A DNA stretch of 64,000 nucleotides from Escherichia coli (GTDB lineage Bacteria; Pseudomonadota; Gammaproteobacteria; Enterobacterales; Enterobacteriaceae), in NCBI RefSeq assembly GCF_030013595.1, contig NZ_CP122768.1. One strand, 5' to 3'. A program made the translations under genes and the position numbers. Of the stretch, positions 5,591 through 49,044 are shown piece after piece. The notes below the pieces were generated by a model that did not search any database, had not been told where the DNA came from, and worked only from the letters and a program-made list of their open reading frames with translations. Position 1 is the stretch's first letter; each line of letters starts with the position of its first letter.

Positions 5591-6084
5591 TAAGCCCCCA
5601 CGTAATTCCCTGACAGATACCACTCTTCACCCGATGCAGCGCGCTTGCTGCTTTTCCGTAAACACCGCTCACGACGCGCAAGAAAATTGTTTCGCTCTTG
5701 CTGGGAGTGGCTTTCACGGAATGCCGCCATCCACACCGTTGCAGCACGACGGTATAAGCCCCTGGACTCCAGTTCTTCCGCCTGGCGGGTCAGGCACAAA
5801 ATAACCCGGGGATCGTTAGTGCCGACATAGAAATTGCGCACAGGTCTGGATTCACGAACTGGTTGCGGTTCCGGCTCCTGCGGTATCTCAGTCAGCCGCG
5901 GGAAATGTCTGCGTGTATCCCCTTCACAACGGTGAGCCACACGCCCACTCTGACGTAACTTGCTTGCTGACTGCAGAACGCGCTGTCGTGAGTAACCTGC
6001 AAAAGCATCCGCAATGTCTCCGGAAGTACACCCCGGATGGGCTTCAATGAATTTCTGAACGTCATTCAAAAGACTCATGATCAC
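5590..6084 (-). CDS. Hypothetical phage protein in replication module
   Basis: 164 aa, translationally coupled to the replication gene upstream and the methyltransferase downstream. Confidence 0.45.
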   Translation of the reverse strand: MIMSLLNDVQKFIEAHPGCTSGDIADAFAGYSRQRVLQSASKLRQSGRVAHRCEGDTRRHFPRLTEIPQEPEPQPVRESRPVRNFYVGTNDPRVILCLTRQAEELESRGLYRRAATVWMAAFRESHSQQERNNFLARRERCLRKSSKRAASGEEWYLSGNYVGA

Positions 6085-7022
6085 CCCCTGAATCCTGCCG
6101 GGATCTGGCTGTAGTCCACGTTGTCGTAACTGGCTTTGAAGTACGGGTCTTCGCGTTTTTCGGTGTACGTGCTGACGGACGGCGATAAGCGCAGGGAAAG
6201 CTCATCCCATTTTTCCCGCAGCTTCGACGGGCTGAGCACGTTACGGCACCAGAACGGATCGCGACTGACGCGGCTGTACATCTCGCAGATTTGTTTATGA
6301 GTACGACCATCCTGCACACACATCAGGCGAATTTCGTTTGCCCAGGCTGTCCAGTTCGGTTCTTTGGGACGAACCACCTCGCCGTCACATTCGGCGGCAT
6401 GCTCGTACAGGGCGATGATTTTTTTCCAGAGCCACTGTGCGCAGGTCAAATCATCCTGCGTCCCCCACTGGCGCTTTTTAGGGCTGAATACAACCGCATC
6501 AGGATGGCGAGTTAAAAAATCCTGTTCAGCCGTCTGCGTGTCCGGTTGCGAAGAGTCCGGACGAGAAGGTTTTTTATCTGACGGATCATGTTTTGATTTT
6601 ACTGACGGATCCCCGCCAGATTCTGACGGGTGAAAACCCGCTTTTTTGCCAGATTTCGACGCATCAAATTTTGACGGGTCAGATTTTGATGCGTCAGATT
6701 TTGACGGGTCAGAATCTGACAGTTGAGAAAATGCCGCTGCCTGAAGCTTCGCAACGTTAAGCTGATAAACATTCGACGCATTGCGGTTACCCTGGCGACG
6801 CGCCTTACGCGTTAACCAGCCTTCTGCTTCCAGCCGTGCGATAGCCGTTCTGACGGTACTCATCCCCGCGCCAATCTGGCGGGCAATGGTTTCAATCGAT
6901 GGCCAGCACACACCTTCGTCATTACTGAAATCAGCCAGGCGGGCCATAATTGCCACGCTGGATAATTTCATGCCTGACGCTGCGCAACCATCCCATACAT
7001 AGCCGGTTAATTTAGTGCTCAT
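6081..7022 (-). CDS. Putative phage replication initiation protein (N-terminal wHTH, O-like role)
   Basis: 313 aa; HTH segment CWPSIETIARQIGAGMSTVRTAIARLEAEGWL; repetitive SDPSKSDASK linker encoded by internal iterons. Confidence 0.55.
   Translation of the reverse strand: MSTKLTGYVWDGCAASGMKLSSVAIMARLADFSNDEGVCWPSIETIARQIGAGMSTVRTAIARLEAEGWLTRKARRQGNRNASNVYQLNVAKLQAAAFSQLSDSDPSKSDASKSDPSKFDASKSGKKAGFHPSESGGDPSVKSKHDPSDKKPSRPDSSQPDTQTAEQDFLTRHPDAVVFSPKKRQWGTQDDLTCAQWLWKKIIALYEHAAECDGEVVRPKEPNWTAWANEIRLMCVQDGRTHKQICEMYSRVSRDPFWCRNVLSPSKLREKWDELSLRLSPSVSTYTEKREDPYFKASYDNVDYSQIPAGFRG
6575..6730. repeat. Iteron array (putative prophage ori) inside the replication gene
   Basis: About 8 tandem copies of a TGACGG(A/G)TC-like unit (tctgacggatc, actgacggatc, tctgacgggtg, ttgacgggtc x2, ttgatgcgtc) followed by an A/T-rich stretch. 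Confidence 0.55.
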
Positions 7023-8168: not shown

Positions 8169-8222
8169 ACAATATGTACCTCCGGTGTACATATTACATG
8201 ATTGAAATGAACCTTCAAGACA

Positions 8223-8243
8223 CTTGTACCTTAACGGTACAAG
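8223..8243. promoter_or_regulatory. Putative OR operator palindrome between cro and cI
   Basis: cttgtacc-ttaa-cggtacaag inverted repeat; further TGTAC half-sites at 8175 and 8186. Confidence 0.45.
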
Positions 8244-8258
8244 GGTTTTAATTTCGTT

Positions 8259-8933
8259 ATGAAAACAATCCATGACATCCGGCGGTCTAACGCCCGAAAA
8301 CTGAGAGATGGTGTTGGAGGGAATTCTTCCTTTGCCACTATGATTGATCGCGAGCCAACCCAGACCAGCAGGTTTATGGGAGATGGTGCTACTAAAAATA
8401 TCGGTGACAGCATGGCACGACACATCGAAAAATGTTTCGACCTGCCTGTCGGATGGCTCGATCAAGAACACCAGACAACGAACATCACAAAAAAACCTGA
8501 TGTTTCAATCACTAATAAACAAATCACATTAGTCCCTGTCATATCATGGGTACAGGCCGGAGCATGGAAAGAAGTTGGATATTCTGAGGTTGATTTGAGC
8601 ACAGCAGAAACGTATCCCTGCCCTGTACCCTGTGGGGAAATGACTTATATCTTGCGGGTGATAGGTGATTCAATGATTGATGAGTACCGCCCGGGAGACA
8701 TGATTTTTGTCGATCCTGAAGTACCTGCCTGCCACGGTGACGACGTTATTGCATTGATGCACGATACAGGTGAAACCACCTTCAAAAGGTTGATAGAAGA
8801 TGGGACACAGCGTTATCTCAAAGCGTTAAACCCAAACTGGCCTGAGCCTTACATTAAGATCAACGGTAATTGCTCTATAATTGGAACTGTGATTTTCTCA
8901 GGAAAACCAAGAAGATACAAAATCAAAGCCTAA
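8259..8933 (+). CDS. CI-like prophage repressor (HTH plus S24 LexA-like peptidase), CohE-like
   Basis: 224 aa; C-terminal S24 region ...VIGDSMIDEYRPGDMIFVDPEV...; divergent from cro. Confidence 0.8.
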   Translation: MKTIHDIRRSNARKLRDGVGGNSSFATMIDREPTQTSRFMGDGATKNIGDSMARHIEKCFDLPVGWLDQEHQTTNITKKPDVSITNKQITLVPVISWVQAGAWKEVGYSEVDLSTAETYPCPVPCGEMTYILRVIGDSMIDEYRPGDMIFVDPEVPACHGDDVIALMHDTGETTFKRLIEDGTQRYLKALNPNWPEPYIKINGNCSIIGTVIFSGKPRRYKIKA

Positions 8934-8946
8934 TCAATGTTTATGA

Positions 8947-8968
8947 ACCTGCTTCGGCAGGTTTTTTT
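8947..8968 (+). terminator. Rho-independent terminator after the cI-like gene
   Basis: acctgc-ttcg-gcaggt hairpin followed by tttttt. Confidence 0.6.
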
Positions 8969-8972
8969 ATAC

Positions 8973-9000
8973 TTGACAATGTACCCACGAGATACATAAT
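8973..9000 (+). promoter_or_regulatory. Putative pL-like sigma70 promoter with operator repeats
   Basis: TTGACA (8973-8978), 16-bp spacer, CATAAT (8995-9000); direct repeats atgtacccacgaga / atgtacccaagaga share the TGTACC operator half-site. Confidence 0.45.
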
Positions 9001-9081
9001 GTACCCAAGAGAAACAACAAACAGGCAGGACGCCCACGAAGTAGCCGCCTGGGGCATATGAAGTCCAGGATGATTCGTTAG

Positions 9082-9110
9082 CAACAAAAAAGCGCCCTAC
9101 AGGACGCTTA
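9082..9110 (-). terminator. Rho-independent terminator for the minus-strand moron
   Basis: On the minus strand: agcgtcc-tgta-gggcgct hairpin followed by tttttgttg, 38 nt past the stop at 9148. Confidence 0.45.
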
Positions 9111-9147
9111 GCTCTTTAACAATCTGGATATCCACAACAGTAGTAAT

Positions 9148-9639
9148 CTACAGATTGCCGTTAAGTTTTCTGGACAACTCCTCAATGGATGGAGGCGATA
9201 CGTAATCCGGATTTTTATTCATCAGAAACTTATTTTCACAGTGGAGGCACCTGCTTTTATGAAAAAGCTCATCTTCGCTAACCGGGAATGGTTGAAGTAT
9301 CGATACTATCTTTTGTCCAAAACATTTTGGGCAAAGATGCATGGTTATGCTGCCACCGTTCACGATTACCTCCTTCGAGTATACAAAAGTACCCGACTCA
9401 AGTTGGTTAAGGATATAGCCTTCCGTCTGAGCCTCAAAGTTTTCGAATTCTGCAATTTTAGCTTTGAGAGAAGCATTTATTTCTTGATAAGAGCCCACCA
9501 GTTCAACGAGAGACACGCATTCGCGCTGAATAGACGCAAGCTTTGAGTTCAGCTCACCAATAGCCGCATTTACTTCAGCTTGAGTTTTTGCCTCGTTCAT
9601 TAGTTTTGCAATCTGGGCTGTTTCACGAATAGCCGTCAT
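9148..9639 (-). CDS. Hypothetical coiled-coil / C4 zinc-ribbon protein (moron between cI and early-left operon)
   Basis: 163 aa from Met at 9639; N-terminal coiled-coil-like region, C-terminal CPKC...(26)...CLHC; opposite to pL transcription; AT-rich; ORF track extends implausibly to 9927. Confidence 0.5.
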   Translation of the reverse strand: MTAIRETAQIAKLMNEAKTQAEVNAAIGELNSKLASIQRECVSLVELVGSYQEINASLKAKIAEFENFEAQTEGYILNQLESGTFVYSKEVIVNGGSITMHLCPKCFGQKIVSILQPFPVSEDELFHKSRCLHCENKFLMNKNPDYVSPPSIEELSRKLNGNL

Positions 9640-9949
9640 TGCTGCCGTTAATTCAGCGATCACATTGAATACTCTTATTGTTGTTGGGGATATCCAGATT
9701 AACCGAATCCTTGTTGTTGGGGAATAACCAGGTCCACCTCGCCTGATGTGGCTAAAAGCAGGCACATAACAGCTAAGTATTTTCAACCAGAGAGAATCCT
9801 TAGCGTTGTGGTGAATGCGGCTCAGCGCACGCGGGTTAAGGTTGAGGCTGACAGTCGACCTTCTGTGGATACCCACCCGCCTGGTGTGCAACCTTCGCCA
9901 GGCACCGGGAGGCACCCGGCACCACAACTTTATGCTGTGTGTAGTCCTG

Positions 9950-9996
9950 GCGGTACCAGTTTGTACCCTTGCTTCCGGCTGGTACCGTCCTTTTTT
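9950..9996 (+). terminator. Rho-independent terminator in GC-rich non-coding region
   Basis: cggtaccag ... ctggtaccg 9-bp stem followed by tcctttttt. Confidence 0.5.
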
Positions 9997-9997
9997 G

Positions 9998-10084
9998 CAA
10001 AACAGAGAAGAGCATCACCGGACGACGGGCTCATAACCCAATCCATCCGGGCGGCTGCCACCGCAGGTGTTCTTCTCTGTTTTG
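9998..10084. repeat. Long imperfect inverted repeat / RNA stem
   Basis: caaaacagagaagagca and tgttcttctctgttttg (17 bp, one mismatch) flanking ~53 bp of GC-rich sequence. Confidence 0.4.
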
Positions 10085-10133
10085 TGGAGAAACCAACCGA
10101 CCTTGCAGGGTCGATATGATGAGGAGCAGCAAA

Positions 10134-10496
10134 ATGGCTAGCGAACGCAGTACTGATGTGCAGGCATTTATCGGGGAGCTGGACGGCGGCGTATTTGAAA
10201 CCAAAATCGGCGCAGTTCTCAGTGAGGTCGCTTCCGGTGTGATGAACACGAAAACCAAAGGGAAGGTCTCACTCAATCTGGAAATCGAACCGTTTGATGA
10301 GAACCGTGTGAAAATCAAACACAAACTCTCATATGTTCGCCCAACTAACCGCGGGAAAATTTCCGAAGAAGACACCACCGAAACGCCGATGTATGTCAAT
10401 CGCGGTGGTCGCCTGACTATTCTGCAGGAAGACCAGGGACAATTACTGACTCTTGCCGGTGAACCTGACGGAAAACTCCGCGCAGCAGGTCGTTAA
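10134..10496 (+). CDS. YfdP-like prophage protein
   Basis: 120 aa; GAGGAG SD 7 nt upstream of ATG; first gene of the early-left operon, gene order as in CPS-53 yfdPQRST. Confidence 0.6.
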   Translation: MASERSTDVQAFIGELDGGVFETKIGAVLSEVASGVMNTKTKGKVSLNLEIEPFDENRVKIKHKLSYVRPTNRGKISEEDTTETPMYVNRGGRLTILQEDQGQLLTLAGEPDGKLRAAGR

Positions 10497-10561
10497 TATC
10501 GTTCGTAATAAACTGATTATTTATCTCATCACTGAATATCTTTATATAGTGAGGACTTATT

Positions 10562-11386
10562 ATGTCTCAGAACTTAGACGCAACCGCAATTAATCAAATC
10601 CATGCCCTTATTTCTGCTCAGAGTGTTAATGAAATTATCAGTAAGATTGGTGCCGATGCTGTGGCATTGCCTGAGAATTTCCGCATTCATGATCTGGAAA
10701 AATTTAATTTAAATCGCTTCCGTTTCCGTGGTGCACTTTCCACTGCCAGCATCGATGATTTTACCCGTTATTCTAAAGATCTTGCAGATGAAGGCACCCG
10801 CTGCTTTATCGATGCCGATAATATGCGTGCCGTCAGTGTGCTTAACCTGGGTACTATTGATGAGCCAGGTCACGCAGATAACACTGCCACTCTCAAACTG
10901 AAAAAGACAGCACCGTTCTCTGCTCTGTTGTCTGTTAACGGCGAGCGTAACTCCCAGAAGTCACTGGCAGAATGGATCGAAGACTGGGCCGACTACCTTG
11001 TGGGCTTTGATGCTAATGGTGACGCCATTCAAGCAACAAAAGCGGCTGCGGCAGTCCGTAAAATCACGATTGAAGCAAACCATACCGCTGATTTTGAAGA
11101 TAATGACTTCAGCGGCAAACGCTCCCTGATGGAGTCTGTCGAAGCGAAGACCAAAGACATTATGCCAGTGGCATTTGAATTTAAATGCGTTCCGTTTGAA
11201 GGTCTGAAAGAACGTCCGTTTAAATTACGCCTCAGCATTATCACTGGCGATCGTCCTGTACTGGTTCTGCGCATTATTCAGCTGGAAGCGGTGCAGGAAG
11301 AAATGGCTAACGAATTTCGTGATCTGCTTGTTGAGAAATTCAAAGACAGCAAAGTAGAAACCTTTATTGGTACTTTCACCGCCTGA
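10562..11386 (+). CDS. yfdQ: YfdQ family protein (DUF2303)
   Basis: 274 aa, same length and position as CPS-53 YfdQ; TGAGGA SD. Confidence 0.7.
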
Positions 11387-12708: not shown

Positions 12709-13079
12709 TGGAGCCATACAGCCTCACACTCGATGAGGCCTGTCAGTTTCTTAAGATATCCAGACCAACCGCCACCAACTGGATACGAACAGGCCGCCTA
12801 CAGGCAACACGTAAAGATCCAACCAAGCCAAAATCTCCTTACCTCACAACACGGCAAGCTTGCATTGCGGCGCTTCAGTCTCCGCTGCATACTGTCCAGG
12901 TGAGCGCGGGTGATGGCATAACAGAGGAAAGAAAATGTCACTCTTCCGCAGAAATGAAATATGGTATGCCTCGTATTCGCTCCCGGGCGGGAAACGAATT
13001 AAGGAATCTCTTGGCACAAAGGACAAGCGGCAAGCTCAGGAGTTGCACGACAAGCGAAAAGCAGAACTCTGGCGAGTAG
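12708..13079 (+). CDS. Putative excisionase (AlpA/Xis-like HTH); 3' end uncertain, frame overlaps int
   Basis: Starts TAATG-coupled to yfdT; N-terminal HTH-like segment [28 protein letters not shown]; frame stays open to 13079. Confidence 0.45.
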
Positions 13080-14098
13080 AAAAGCTAGGGGATTTACCTG
13101 ATGTCACTTTTGAAGAGGCCTGCCTAAGATGGCTTGAGGAAAAAGCTGATAAAAAATCTCTCGATTCAGATAAAAGCCGGATTGAGTTCTGGCTTGAACA
13201 TTTTGAGGGTATAAGGCTTAAAGATATCTCGGAGGCAAAGATTTACTCTGCTGTAAGCAGAATGCATAACAGAAAGACGAAAGAAATATGGAAACAGAAA
13301 GTTCAGGCCGCCATCAGGAAAGGTAAAGAACCGCCTGTTTATGAACCAAAGCCAGTATCAACTCAGACAAAGGCAAAGCATCTTGCCATGATAAAGGCCA
13401 TTCTCCGTGCTGCAGAACGCGACTGGAAGTGGCTGGAAAAAGCGCCTGTCATCAAGATACCAGCGGTCAGAAACAAGCGAGTCAGATGGCTGGAAAAGGA
13501 GGAAGCAAAACGCCTTATTGATGAGTGCCCCGAACCACTGAAATCTGTCGTCAAGTTTGCGCTGGCAACTGGTCTGAGAAAGTCGAACATCATAAATCTG
13601 GAATGGCAACAAATCGACATGCAGCGACGAGTTGCCTGGGTGAATCCAGAAGAGAGCAAATCAAACCGCGCCATTGGTGTGGCGCTGAACGATACCGCCT
13701 GTAAAGTGTTGCGTGATCAAATAGGCAAGCATCACAAATGGGTGTTTGTACATACCAAGGCGGCTAAGCGAGCAGATGGAACATCAACGCCTGCGGTCAG
13801 GAAGATGCGCATCGACAGCAAGACATCATGGCTATCAGCTTGTCGTCGTGCAGGAATTGAAGATTTCCGTTTCCATGACCTCAGACACACCTGGGCAAGC
13901 TGGCTGATCCAGTCAGGCGTCCCATTATCTGTGCTTCAGGAAATGGGCGGATGGGAGTCCATAGAAATGGTTCGTAGGTATGCTCACCTTGCGCCTAATC
14001 ATTTGACAGAGCATGCAAGGAAAATAGACGACATTTTTGGTGATAATGTCCCAAATATGTCCCACTGTGGAATTATGGAGGATATAAAGAAGGCGTAA
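12935..14098 (+). CDS. intD: Tyrosine integrase (IntD-like), adjacent to argU
   Basis: 387 aa; C-terminal catalytic region ...[17 protein letters not shown]...VRRYAHL; ends 16 bp from the tRNA 3' end. Confidence 0.85.
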
Positions 14099-14113: not shown

Positions 14114-14190
14114 TGGCGCGCCCTGCAGGATTCGAACCTGCGGCCCACGACTTAGAAGGTCGTTGCTCTATCCAACTGAGCTAAGGGCGC
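14114..14190 (-). tRNA. argU: tRNA-Arg (anticodon UCU), argU
   Basis: Reverse complement GCGCCCTTAGCTCAGTTGGATAGAGCAACGACCTTCTAAGTCGTGGGCCGCAGGTTCGAATCCTGCAGGGCGCGCCA, 77 nt, cloverleaf-compatible. Confidence 0.95.
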
Positions 14191-33568: not shown

Positions 33569-34804
33569 ATGATTACACATTTCCGTCAAGCCATAGAAGA
33601 AACGCTGCCCTGGCTTTCCTCTTTTGGCGCTGACCCAACGGGTGGGATGACCCGTTTACTTTATTCGCCGGAATGGCTGGAAACTCAGCAGCAATTTAAA
33701 AAAAGAATGGCAGCAAGCGGGCTGGAAACACGTTTCGATGAAGTGGGGAATTTATATGGTCGCCTGAGTGGCACCGAATATCCACAAGAAGTGGTTCTGA
33801 GCGGTTCGCATATCGATACCGTGGTTAACGGCGGTAACCTCGACGGGCAATTCGGCGCGCTGGCGGCGTGGCTGGCAATTGACTGGCTGAAAACGCAATA
33901 CGGCGCGCCGTTACGTACGGTCGAAGTGGTGGCGATGGCAGAAGAAGAAGGCAGCCGCTTCCCGTATGTCTTCTGGGGCAGTAAAAATATCTTTGGGCTG
34001 GCGAATCCTGACGACGTGCGGAATATCTGTGATGCCAAAGGAAATAGTTTTGTCGATGCGATGAAGGCTTGCGGATTTACTCTGCCGAACGCCCCACTAA
34101 CTCCGCGTCAGGATATTAAAGCCTTTGTTGAACTGCATATTGAACAGGGCTGTGTGCTGGAAAGCAATGGGCAGTCAATTGGCGTGGTGAATGCAATTGT
34201 CGGGCAGCGTCGTTATACGGTGACGCTGAACGGCGAATCAAACCATGCAGGCACCACGCCGATGGGTTATCGTCGTGATACGGTTTACGCTTTCAGTCGC
34301 ATTTGCCATCAGTCTGTCGAAAAAGCGAAAAAGATGGGCGATCCGCTGGTTCTGACCTTTGGCAAAGTAGAGCCGCGCCCGAATACGGTGAATGTGGTGC
34401 CGGGTAAAACCACGTTCACCATTGATTGTCGCCATACCGATGCTGCCGTGCTGCGCGATTTCACCCAACAGTTAGAAAACGACATGCGGGCGATTTGCGA
34501 TGAAATGGACATTGGTATTGATATCGATTTATGGATGGACGAAGAACCCGTGCCGATGAACAAGGAACTGGTCGCCACCCTGACAGAATTGTGTGAACGC
34601 GAAAAACTGAATTACCGGGTGATGCACAGTGGTGCCGGGCACGACGCACAAATTTTCGCGCCGCGCGTGCCGACCTGCATGATTTTTATCCCCAGCATCA
34701 ACGGGATCAGCCATAACCCGGCAGAACGCACCAATATTACCGACCTTGCCGAAGGGGTCAAAACGTTGGCACTCATGCTTTATCAACTTGCCTGGCAGAA
34801 ATAA
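33569..34804 (+). CDS. allC: Allantoate amidohydrolase AllC
   Basis: 411 aa from MITHFRQAIEE; M20 peptidase family. Confidence 0.9.
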   Translation: MITHFRQAIEETLPWLSSFGADPTGGMTRLLYSPEWLETQQQFKKRMAASGLETRFDEVGNLYGRLSGTEYPQEVVLSGSHIDTVVNGGNLDGQFGALAAWLAIDWLKTQYGAPLRTVEVVAMAEEEGSRFPYVFWGSKNIFGLANPDDVRNICDAKGNSFVDAMKACGFTLPNAPLTPRQDIKAFVELHIEQGCVLESNGQSIGVVNAIVGQRRYTVTLNGESNHAGTTPMGYRRDTVYAFSRICHQSVEKAKKMGDPLVLTFGKVEPRPNTVNVVPGKTTFTIDCRHTDAAVLRDFTQQLENDMRAICDEMDIGIDIDLWMDEEPVPMNKELVATLTELCEREKLNYRVMHSGAGHDAQIFAPRVPTCMIFIPSINGISHNPAERTNITDLAEGVKTLALMLYQLAWQK

Positions 34805-35600: not shown

Positions 35601-35642
35601 GTCATACCACTCGCCTGATTATTTTTAGCTATGTTGGATTTT

Positions 35643-35669
35643 GCCACGGTTTATACCGTGGCTTTTTTT
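35643..35669 (+). terminator. Rho-independent terminator after allE
   Basis: gccacggt-ttat-accgtggc followed by ttttttt. Confidence 0.6.
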
Positions 35670-35684
35670 GCGGTAAATTCAGGT

Positions 35685-48633: not shown

Positions 48634-48695
48634 TGGGCGGTATTCTGAAACGGCGATTGTCGTGAGAACAAAATGGTTGCACCAGAATACAGATA

Positions 48696-48733
48696 TAAAA
48701 AAACCGACATGACAGTCGGTTTTTTTATTTTTT
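48696..48733 (+). terminator. Rho-independent terminator after mnmH
   Basis: aaaaaaaccgacatgacagtcggtttttttatttttt; a degenerate second copy lies at 49174-49203. Confidence 0.6.
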
Positions 48734-49044
48734 CCGCCCAAGACTTGGTGGTTCCGGGCAGAAATGAAACAGTCCTCATCTAGCAAGTGAATTATAAGTC
48801 AGGATGCCTACATATTCAAACAGCTATGTTGGCGATACAATCCCGACGCTAGTAGTGATACTGCCTCAAGGGATTACCGCAGTGCGGAAAAGTACTTTTA
48901 AGTCCTGGTCAGGATACAGGTGGTGCTGATTCTGGTGCTCTAATTTGGAGAGAGGCAGTCCTCATCTAGCACATGAAGAAAATCATAGTTACAGGCAACG
49001 TAAGGGTAAGCTGTGATTGTCTTTCTCCCTTAAGGGAGCAACGG

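Follow-up and report, generated by a model that had tools for sequence, protein, structure and literature searches.

STnc100, for which the names EcOnc27 and sRNA103 are also in use, and the PasD RNAs are small RNAs (sRNAs) of prophages that bind Hfq and have been validated by northern blot (PMC7873438; PMC4104026; bioRxiv 10.64898/2026.05.13.724894). In lambdoid prophages, their genes lie downstream of Q or stx (PMC4104026; PMC7873438; PMC12711010; PMC12370729). The classical members of this family accumulate as terminated sRNAs of ~200 nucleotides (nt) (PMC7873438). A different kind of phage RNA, the put RNAs of HK022, is ~70 nt long, has a two-stem V shape, occurs in a PL and a PR copy, and acts alone on the zinc-binding domain of the RNA polymerase beta' subunit (PMC9378689). 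The element considered here spans positions 9780-10090 of a 64,000-nt stretch of Escherichia coli DNA (contig NZ_CP122768.1; “the window”), within a lambdoid prophage and upstream of a yfdP-like gene. It is a real non-coding RNA leader of the early-left (pL) operon with three separable conserved modules: an STnc100-like pseudoknotted core (module A), a GU-rich linker with an intrinsic terminator (module B), and a long hairpin that mimics the anticodon arm of initiator tRNA (module C). An earlier note on this DNA had offered three readings of the region, namely a phage sRNA, a cis-acting antitermination RNA like the put sites of HK022, and an attenuator.

Modules A and B together gave a full-length match on the + strand (9775-9998) to the Rfam STnc100 model (RF02076) in a permissive scan, covering model positions 1-206 of 206 with 40.3 bits and an E-value of 3.4e-7. 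This is below the gathering score of 47, and STnc100 is not listed in a default gathering-threshold Rfam scan of the window. The corresponding matches of the relatives SfV and ST64B score 39.5 and 35.1 bits, the latter with the core only. The earlier note had regarded a hit to a known Rfam element as one outcome that would speak against its proposal, and a sub-threshold match supplies such a hit by half. Among its three readings, the phage sRNA gains support from homology, both by the end-to-end alignment and by a covariance model built here from family sequences (R1), which places the element in the same superfamily.

Module A is a 124-nt, five-helix pseudoknotted domain (9805-9928, + strand), the anatomy and covariation of which were drawn from 25 non-redundant sequences; the shared 22-mer CACCGGGAGGCACCCGGCACCA, searched as an exact motif in viral contigs, gave more than 120 loci. 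The core begins with the closing stem P1 (9805-9813 with 9920-9928), followed by an invariant GGUGAAU junction, the hairpin P2 with a bulged A (9816-9833), a variable insert, the penultimate hairpin P4 (9879-9886 with 9896-9903), and the invariant hairpin P5 (CCGGG-AGGCA-CCCGG, 9905-9919). The invariant shared 22-nt stretch CACCGGGAGGCACCCGGCACC is exact in the window. P1 covaries among the 25 sequences (GUUGUGGUG/CACCACAAC, GCAUGGUG/CACCAUGC, and UUGCGGUG/CACCGCAA), and P2 exists in a classical version (CCCCC/GGGGG) and a window-type version (GCGGC/GCCGC), with full compensation in both strands. The pseudoknot is formed by a stretch just 3' of P2 and the complementary loop of the penultimate hairpin (AAGGUUG 9838-9844 with CAACCUU 9889-9895 in the window), and its sequences differ by lineage (CAGUUAA/UUAACUG in P7; CCAGUC/GACUGG or AUCAGC/GCUGGU in classical members). 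The mean complementarity is 6.5 base pairs (bp) within the same sequence versus 4.4 bp for cross pairs, a value reached by none of 5000 permutations, and the accessible STnc100/PasD literature does not mention a conserved pseudoknot.

The R1 model gives module A 85 bits, and untrained variants from the same position 31-34 bits. Judged by its sequence and predicted fold, module A is a divergent, promoter-less relative of the STnc100/EcOnc27/PasD superfamily. A terminator follows within 200 nt in 112 of the 129 unique instances of the STnc100 family. A third genomic context is seen in P1-like phages (P7 and SJ46), which carry an STnc100-like core in the ban operon between tRNA genes and tciA. 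A further R1 hit in the window (34178-34264, 20 bits) was rejected as chance, as it consists only of the P1 stem (GCGUGGUGAAUGC...CACCACGCC) and lies inside an open reading frame (ORF) of 417 amino acids (aa).

Module B (9929-9996, + strand) consists of a seed-like, GU-rich single-stranded linker, UUUAUGCUGUGUGUAGUCCU (9929-9948), and an intrinsic terminator (9949-9996) with an 11-13 bp stem, a 19-nt loop, and a U6 run. In the stem, ggcggtaccag (9949-9959) pairs with ctggtaccgtc (9979-9989), TTTTTT follows at 9991-9996, and the segment 9931-9998 folds with -20.9 kcal/mol. This is a G+C-rich hairpin directly before a U-run, as expected of an intrinsic terminator, with a loop longer than typical; a simple scanner that allows loops of 3-8 nt left it unlisted for that reason. 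The canonical terminator that the earlier note had placed at 9950-9996 is real and is kept in relatives: ST64B, phiNP, and many metagenomic loci retain the U-run and a hairpin whose stem shows compensatory changes, and the terminator is present in all 30 unique window-type instances. No other strong terminator is found on the + strand from pL to int. Together with the GU-rich stretch UGCUGUGUGUAGUC, the terminator is kept across phages with differing or absent cores, including mEp460, cdtI, Stx2c phages, phiNP, and metagenomic loci. A complementary-site search for a target of the linker in the phage genome matched only the element itself, and Rfam matches to DicF, ftsZ-DE, and a hairpin ribozyme were all far under threshold.

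Module C (9998-10084, + strand) is the most conserved and most unusual part of the leader. It is a long hairpin with a three-way junction cap, in which the outer stem (9998-10016 with 10066-10084) encloses arm a (10018-10050) and a variable arm b (10051-10064). The earlier note had recorded its 17-bp inverted repeat as a detail; caaaacagagaagagca (9998-10014) does pair with tgttcttctctgttttg (10068-10084) across 53 nt, but the pairing extends to 19-26 pairs and encloses the tRNA-like arm. The fold has a z-score of -5.2, with none of 200 shuffles equally stable. Across 18 non-redundant sequences, 95.4% of cells are paired, compared with 40-51% when the partners are slid, and compensatory changes affect six pairs in 20 cells, which none of 500 shuffles reached. 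No Rfam family matched module C, and a second covariance model built for it (R2) finds one copy per phage.

Within arm a, the segment CGACGGGCUCAUAACCC (10023-10039, + strand) reproduces the anticodon arm of the E. coli initiator tRNA (tRNA-fMet), with the 7-nt loop CUCAUAA, the anticodon CAU, and three consecutive G-C pairs. Three consecutive G-C pairs in the anticodon stem are a mark of initiator tRNAs. Sixteen of the 17 nt match tRNA-fMet, the sequence of which was checked against annotated tRNA-Met genes, and 14 consecutive nt are identical (10026-10039, corresponding to tRNA gene positions 29-42), a degree of sharing found in none of 2000 shuffles of the region. In the minimum free energy fold, the mimic is predicted to form a 3-bp stem with a 7-nt loop. 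An origin of module C from a whole tRNA was considered and rejected: the flanks are unlike tRNA-fMet, ARAGORN finds nothing in 9600-10300, and no Rfam tRNA model matches at E-values up to 10. The element was not described in the literature searched on ymfH, SfV antitermination, ST64B sRNAs, and tRNA-fMet mimics, and the leader hairpin with its tRNA-fMet mimic is a previously undescribed element.

The three modules are combined in different ways among relatives, some of which have exchanged or lost the core but retain the terminator and module C. Five of the 32 representative loci lack the core and keep the terminator and module C, and at the locus L167, module C directly adjoins a pL-like promoter that has an operator palindrome, with neither core nor terminator present. 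Because of these core-less loci and L167, module C is seen as the constant part of the leader and modules A and B as add-ons. The remainder of the 5' untranslated region (UTR), at 10085-10133 (+ strand), contains the conserved UGGAGAAAC, a small hairpin (10098-10113), and the Shine-Dalgarno sequence GAGGAG (10121-10126). P5 also contains a strong Shine-Dalgarno-like GGGAGG and UGGAGAAAC stands after module C, such that several motifs in the leader, together with the initiator-arm mimic, resemble translation-initiation signals.

The region is more GC-rich than its surroundings, as the earlier note had observed, with 0.50-0.61 GC in 100-nt windows over 9750-10150 compared with 0.39-0.47 over 9150-9750 and 0.31-0.46 over 10450-10700. 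Its further statement that no credible ORF is present stands with respect to genes, although mechanical ORFs of 123 aa (9748-10119, + strand), 60 aa, and 43 aa (both - strand) overlap the element. These are not credible genes, because their only relatives are PHROG families of unknown function built from the same conserved DNA, the minus-strand family (phrog_3651) is split over two frames in the window, and the putative 123-aa ORF is broken by indels of 1, 1, 20, and 1 nt relative to ST64B. G-U pairs and compensatory changes also fit an RNA read from the + strand.

The element is found in 2779 of 5426 complete E. coli genomes, in 1823 of these with at least 80% coverage, and is labelled in RefSeq/GenBank as “hypothetical protein” or, in the e14 prophage of K-12, as ymfH. 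The K-12 y-ome “gene” ymfH (L251:3534-3845) is the e14 copy of the element, 90% identical and directly upstream of xisE-intE. This copy has lost bases that are invariant elsewhere through mutations in P5 and the mimic loop, as expected for a function in the phage cycle given that e14 is a cryptic prophage.

The left 14 kb of the window form one end of a lambdoid prophage integrated beside tRNA-Arg(UCU) (14114-14190), and the segment 9700-10140 matches Escherichia phage PhiR49_1 with 100% identity and the Shigella phages SfIV and SfV with 97-98%. The host prophage is of the N-less SfV/e14/ST64B type. Inspection of ORFs and PHROG matches found no N-like gene in either early operon (cI to int, and the pR operon), in agreement with the earlier note, and the complete phage carries a Q gene. 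The order cI, variable insert, core, terminator, module C, and first early-left gene, without N, is common to eight relatives (SfV, ST64B, mEp460, cdtI, Lys8385Vzw, phiNP, PhiR49_1, and e14). In a promoter scan, the + strand from 9100 to 10700 was free of sigma-70-like promoters; the only candidate next to the core, GAGAAT at 9792-9797, was rejected as it has no -35 element and is not kept in ST64B. The pL promoter (8973-9000, + strand; TTGACA-16-CATAAT) has 11 of 12 matches in the same scan and is overlapped by two operator-like direct repeats of 19 nt, AATGTACCCACGAGATACA and AATGTACCCAAGAGAAACA (8978-9016). These repeats resemble the oR palindromes TGTACC..GGTACA at 8172-8246, and the block of pL and operators is kept in SfV, cdtI, and e14. 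As the scan showed no + strand promoter in that stretch and pL with its operators is conserved upstream, the element is most likely transcribed from pL. The earlier note had placed the element between pL and the first early-left gene; this is correct in outline, but pL is not adjacent, as it lies ~800 nt upstream with a minus-strand moron gene in between.

These observations are best explained by a composite leader, an explanation we hold tentatively and place slightly short of even. When the cI-type repressor leaves pL, polymerase would transcribe ~0.95 kb to the terminator of module B. The stopped transcripts, probably trimmed at the 5' end, would become an STnc100-type sRNA made on induction, a proposal for which the homology, the terminator, and the single-stranded GU-rich stretch argue. 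Such an sRNA would have a structured 5' domain, the GU-rich stretch, a terminator hairpin, and a U-tail, and may bind Hfq as the classical members do. The terminator would also limit or insulate entry into the yfdP-to-xis-int operon with an efficiency that we can only infer. Read-through mRNA would carry module C as a regulatory 5' UTR that sets processing, stability, or translation, acting either through a factor that recognizes the initiator anticodon arm or through RNase III, for which the 19-26 bp stem is a plausible substrate. The tRNA-fMet-like arm would imply a specific partner.

A more far-reaching proposal, which we consider rather doubtful, is that module C is a functional mimic of the initiator anticodon arm that engages a reader of tRNA-fMet (the 30S P site with IF3, MetRS, or a VapC-type nuclease) and thereby gates or protects the excision and early-left genes. 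Together with the STnc100-type domain and the boxA-like motif described below, it would constitute a previously unrecognized form of RNA-only control in place of N/nut, and if true, such a system would exist in a phage group that about half of E. coli genomes carry.

Several points weigh against the composite leader. The long loop of the terminator (19 nt, and up to ~45 nt in relatives) makes its termination efficiency uncertain. No transcript data were found for this variant, and the function of classical STnc100 may not transfer to a copy that is sub-threshold, promoter-less, and early-left. A boxA-like motif just 5' of P1 in relatives hints at an involvement of Nus factors that the composite leader does not explain. 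The mimic has no known partner, and although the mimic arm is the invariant part of module C, the loci were gathered with the mimic sequence as search pattern, such that the invariance is partly by construction. Related hairpins with CAU and GGG/CCC retained are, however, also recovered by the R2 structure model, independently of that pattern, in P7 and at the locus L039.

Alternatively, the core and the boxA-like motif, alone or with host Nus factors, could act as a put-like or N-independent nut-like antiterminator that drives read-through of the terminator. The phage group lacks N, the core lies upstream of the only terminator of the operon, and the invariant junction nucleotides suggest a specific partner. 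In addition, a boxA-like GYGCUCUYU stands 2-4 nt 5' of P1 in most operon-embedded variants, with perfect forms (UGCUCUUU, CGCUCUUU, or UGCUCUUA) in SJ46, P7, L015, L179, L188, and L233, and a similar motif occurs in the 3' strand of module C. Compared with the lambda-type boxA (CGCUCUUA or UGCUCUUUA), many relatives have good boxA-like motifs, whereas the window reads GAAUCCUUAGC at the equivalent position, which is degenerate. The HK022 proposal of the earlier note found no backing: neither putL nor putR shares a motif or architecture with the element, neither R1 nor R2 matches HK022, and there is one copy per phage instead of two, with none in the pR operon and no second copy of module A or C of the putR or nutR kind in the full PhiR49_1 genome. 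In classical family members, transcription ends at the terminator behind the core, which shows no suppression of that terminator by the core (PMC7873438), and the terminator and module C are also retained in the core-less loci mentioned above. An antiterminator therefore appears unlikely. In relatives (e.g., phiNP and the loci L135, L179, L188, and L233), a motif of ~20 nt, GUGCUCUYYUC-GUUGUGG(U)GAA, which joins a boxA-like sequence to a GU-rich run, is present twice per leader, at the 5' edge of the core and as the 3' strand and tail of module C. The equivalent window positions are 9790-9813 and 10066-10094, where both copies are more degenerate. The motif could be a Nus-factor site, part of an alternative long-range pairing, or a duplication.

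Module C could instead be a decoy or sensor for an enzyme that acts on the initiator anticodon arm, such as an enteric VapC/MvpT PIN toxin, and either protect the phage or couple the toxin to the excision genes. VapC of Shigella and Salmonella cuts the anticodon arm of tRNA-fMet, according to the account in PMC5408214, which cites Winther and Gerdes (2011). The arm so described is exactly the one copied in module C, including its three G-C pairs, and the phage group has Shigella, Salmonella, E. coli, and Citrobacter as its hosts; the hairpins of P7 and L039 also stand among phage tRNA genes. However, one copy in a 5' UTR would hardly suffice as a stoichiometric decoy, the wide occurrence of the element in E. 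coli genomes appears independent of known VapBC carriage, and the long outer stem is left unexplained, all of which makes this reading improbable.

A riboswitch-type attenuator, in which the core would bind a small molecule or protein as an aptamer and the terminator would serve as its expression platform, is less probable still. The layout of a structured domain, short linker, and terminator fits such a device, as does a pseudoknotted fold with invariant junction bases, and in the window, the 3' strand of P4 (CGCCAGG, 9896-9902) can pair with CCUGGCG (9945-9951) at the foot of the terminator. This antiterminator pairing was rejected, as ST64B and mEp460 do not have it. The free recombination of cores with terminators and the lack of any conserved alternative pairing make a riboswitch unlikely; moreover, the terminator occurs without the core, P7 and the locus L061 have a core without terminator, and no likeness to Rfam riboswitches was seen. 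The attenuator of the earlier note is still plausible for the terminator, but the comparison gave no conserved alternative pairing. Least probable is a protein-coding role for the 123-aa ORF (YmfH of e14) or the phrog_3651 ORF, for which the database labels, the PHROG families, and a screen in which over-expression of a ymfH clone triggered the retron-Sen2 toxin RcaT (bioRxiv 10.1101/2020.06.22.160242) might be cited, since the frames are not kept, variation tracks base-pairing and not codons, the GTG start has no preceding Shine-Dalgarno sequence, and the screen phenotype could equally be an RNA effect.

The genes around the element are arranged as follows. On the minus strand, O (6081-7022) is followed by ymfM, the cII-like ymfL, and cro, and then by the cI-type repressor gene on the + strand (8259-8933), which has its own terminator at 8945-8964. 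Between pL and the element lies a moron cassette (9121-9700) bounded by 26-nt inverted repeats (9121-9146 and 9675-9700; 85% complementary). Its gene (9148-9639, - strand, antisense to pL) encodes a protein of 163 aa with a coiled-coil N-terminus and a Cys-rich C-terminus (phrog_1244, function unassigned), and the cassette has a terminator on the same strand at 9109-9090. The direct repeat CTTnTTGTTGTTGGGGA is present two or three times within 9672-9722, and other phages have different inserts at this position, such as orf33 in SfV. The moron protein, YfdP, and SfV orf33 were considered as defense or N-like proteins and rejected, with no PADLOC match and no antiterminator PHROG. Downstream of the leader, the yfdP-like gene (10134-10496, + strand; phrog_204) is the first of the early-left operon and is followed by yfdQ, an HD hydrolase gene, yfdS/T, xis, and int (12935-14098), after which comes the tRNA-Arg gene.

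Other structured RNAs are found in the related phages and elsewhere in the window. SfV (L001:726-914), ST64B (L002:909-1097), and mEp460 (L006:823-1011) have above-threshold Rfam matches to C4 antisense RNA and isrK in the early-right “immunity/antirepressor” region, where the window phage has ymfL/ymfM and no such match. Outside the prophage end studied here, above-threshold Rfam matches in the window are STnc480 (35607-35673, - strand; 84.9 bits) and AgrB (48695-48783, - strand; 53.6 bits).

In the P1-like phages, a module C-like hairpin and an STnc100-like core lie among tRNA genes upstream of tciA/terB (P7 ban operon, L004:2066-2179 and 2509-2624; SJ46, L005:2504-2623). The hairpin scores 34.6 bits, with a fully compensated outer stem and the loop UUCAUAU, and is located in P7 between tRNA-Thr and the core; ARAGORN places a tRNA-Ser(UGA) at P7 2313-2399, between the hairpin and the core, and the core in P7 and SJ46 is preceded by UGCUCUUA. 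In some prophages (viral contigs L112, L009, and L054), a stretch of 0.5-3 kb contains two or three classical STnc100 cores, which fits the multi-copy PasA/PasD arrangements of the literature. The locus L039:1678-2500 has, in order, a Q-like gene, a promoter, a classical STnc100 core at ~+1, two terminators, tRNA-Asn, tRNA-Arg(UCU), a module C-like three-way junction with GGGCUCAUAAUCC, a terminator, and holin and lysozyme genes. As the core lies at ~+1 behind a Q-like gene in this layout, the STnc100 core in some phages is the 5' end of a pR'-type late leader, a “6S-like” RNA.

For genome annotation, these results mean that a structured RNA in about half of complete E. coli genomes is labelled as a protein and is missed by Rfam pipelines by ~7 bits. 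They extend the STnc100/PasD family from late-region moron genes to a promoter-less, early-left leader form and add a conserved pseudoknot to it. They also point to how N-less lambdoid phages (SfV, SfII, SfIV, ST64B, mEp460, cdtI, e14, and some Stx2c phages) may control entry into the xis/int operon, and the copy of an initiator anticodon arm in a conserved 5' UTR hairpin is unexpected and directly testable. The element is thus partly known, by its kinship with the STnc100 family, and partly new, by its early-left context and the initiator-tRNA-mimic leader hairpin.

Among the described systems, classical STnc100 shares P1, GGUGAAU, P2 with its bulged A, the pseudoknot, and CACCGGGAGGCACCCGGCACC with the window copy, and both are prophage-borne. 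The terminator of family members stands ~20-70 nt behind the core (median ~65 nt in classical members), and the window copy is likewise closed by a hairpin and U6. The window copy differs by its score below the gathering threshold and its fully swapped P2. It also has no promoter of its own, whereas classical members have TTGACn/TTGTCT and TAAATT/TAAAAA with a 17-nt spacer just before P1. In addition, it lies in the pL leader and is coupled to module C, whereas the classical site is a late-region moron at the head of the lysis/late region, in some cases directly after a Q-like gene. The put RNAs of HK022 resemble the element in being RNA elements in the early-left leader of an N-less lambdoid phage, upstream of a terminator, but the window domain has 124 nt with five helices and a pseudoknot, is present in a single copy, and shares no put sequence.

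The nutL/N leader of lambda is comparable in its position between pL and the first early-left gene, in the boxA-like motif beside a structured RNA in relatives, and in a long double-stranded hairpin, RNase III-sensitive in lambda, before the first cistron. In contrast to lambda, the window leader contains a strong terminator, its boxA is degenerate, and it has neither N nor a boxB-type 15-nt hairpin after the boxA position, which speaks against a lambda-type nut site. StxS, the 6S RNA of lambda (pR'-tR'), and DicF (Qin dicB operon) are likewise sRNAs from the 5' part of repressor-controlled phage operons, with a terminator that must be read through for the genes behind it. StxS and 6S start at their promoters, however, whereas the window element lies ~800 nt downstream of pL, and no Q-type factor is known to act at it. 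DicF (RF00039) scores 15.7 bits against a threshold of 48 (E-value 1.5), which does not make the element a DicF RNA and is a lead only; 15 of 16 nt (UGGCGGUAyCAGUUU) are common to the terminator stems of the window element and DicF.

With respect to tRNA mimicry, the operator of E. coli thrS mimics the tRNA-Thr anticodon arm in an mRNA leader, and the tRNA-fMet gene metY heads the nusA-infB operon, where terminators and RNase III hairpins precede the genes. Module C differs from both in copying the anticodon arm only, with no cloverleaf and with flanks unlike a tRNA, and in preceding genes unrelated to methionine or translation initiation. It nevertheless shares with thrS a 5'-leader hairpin that reproduces a tRNA anticodon arm, and with metY a tRNA-fMet sequence at the head of an operon.

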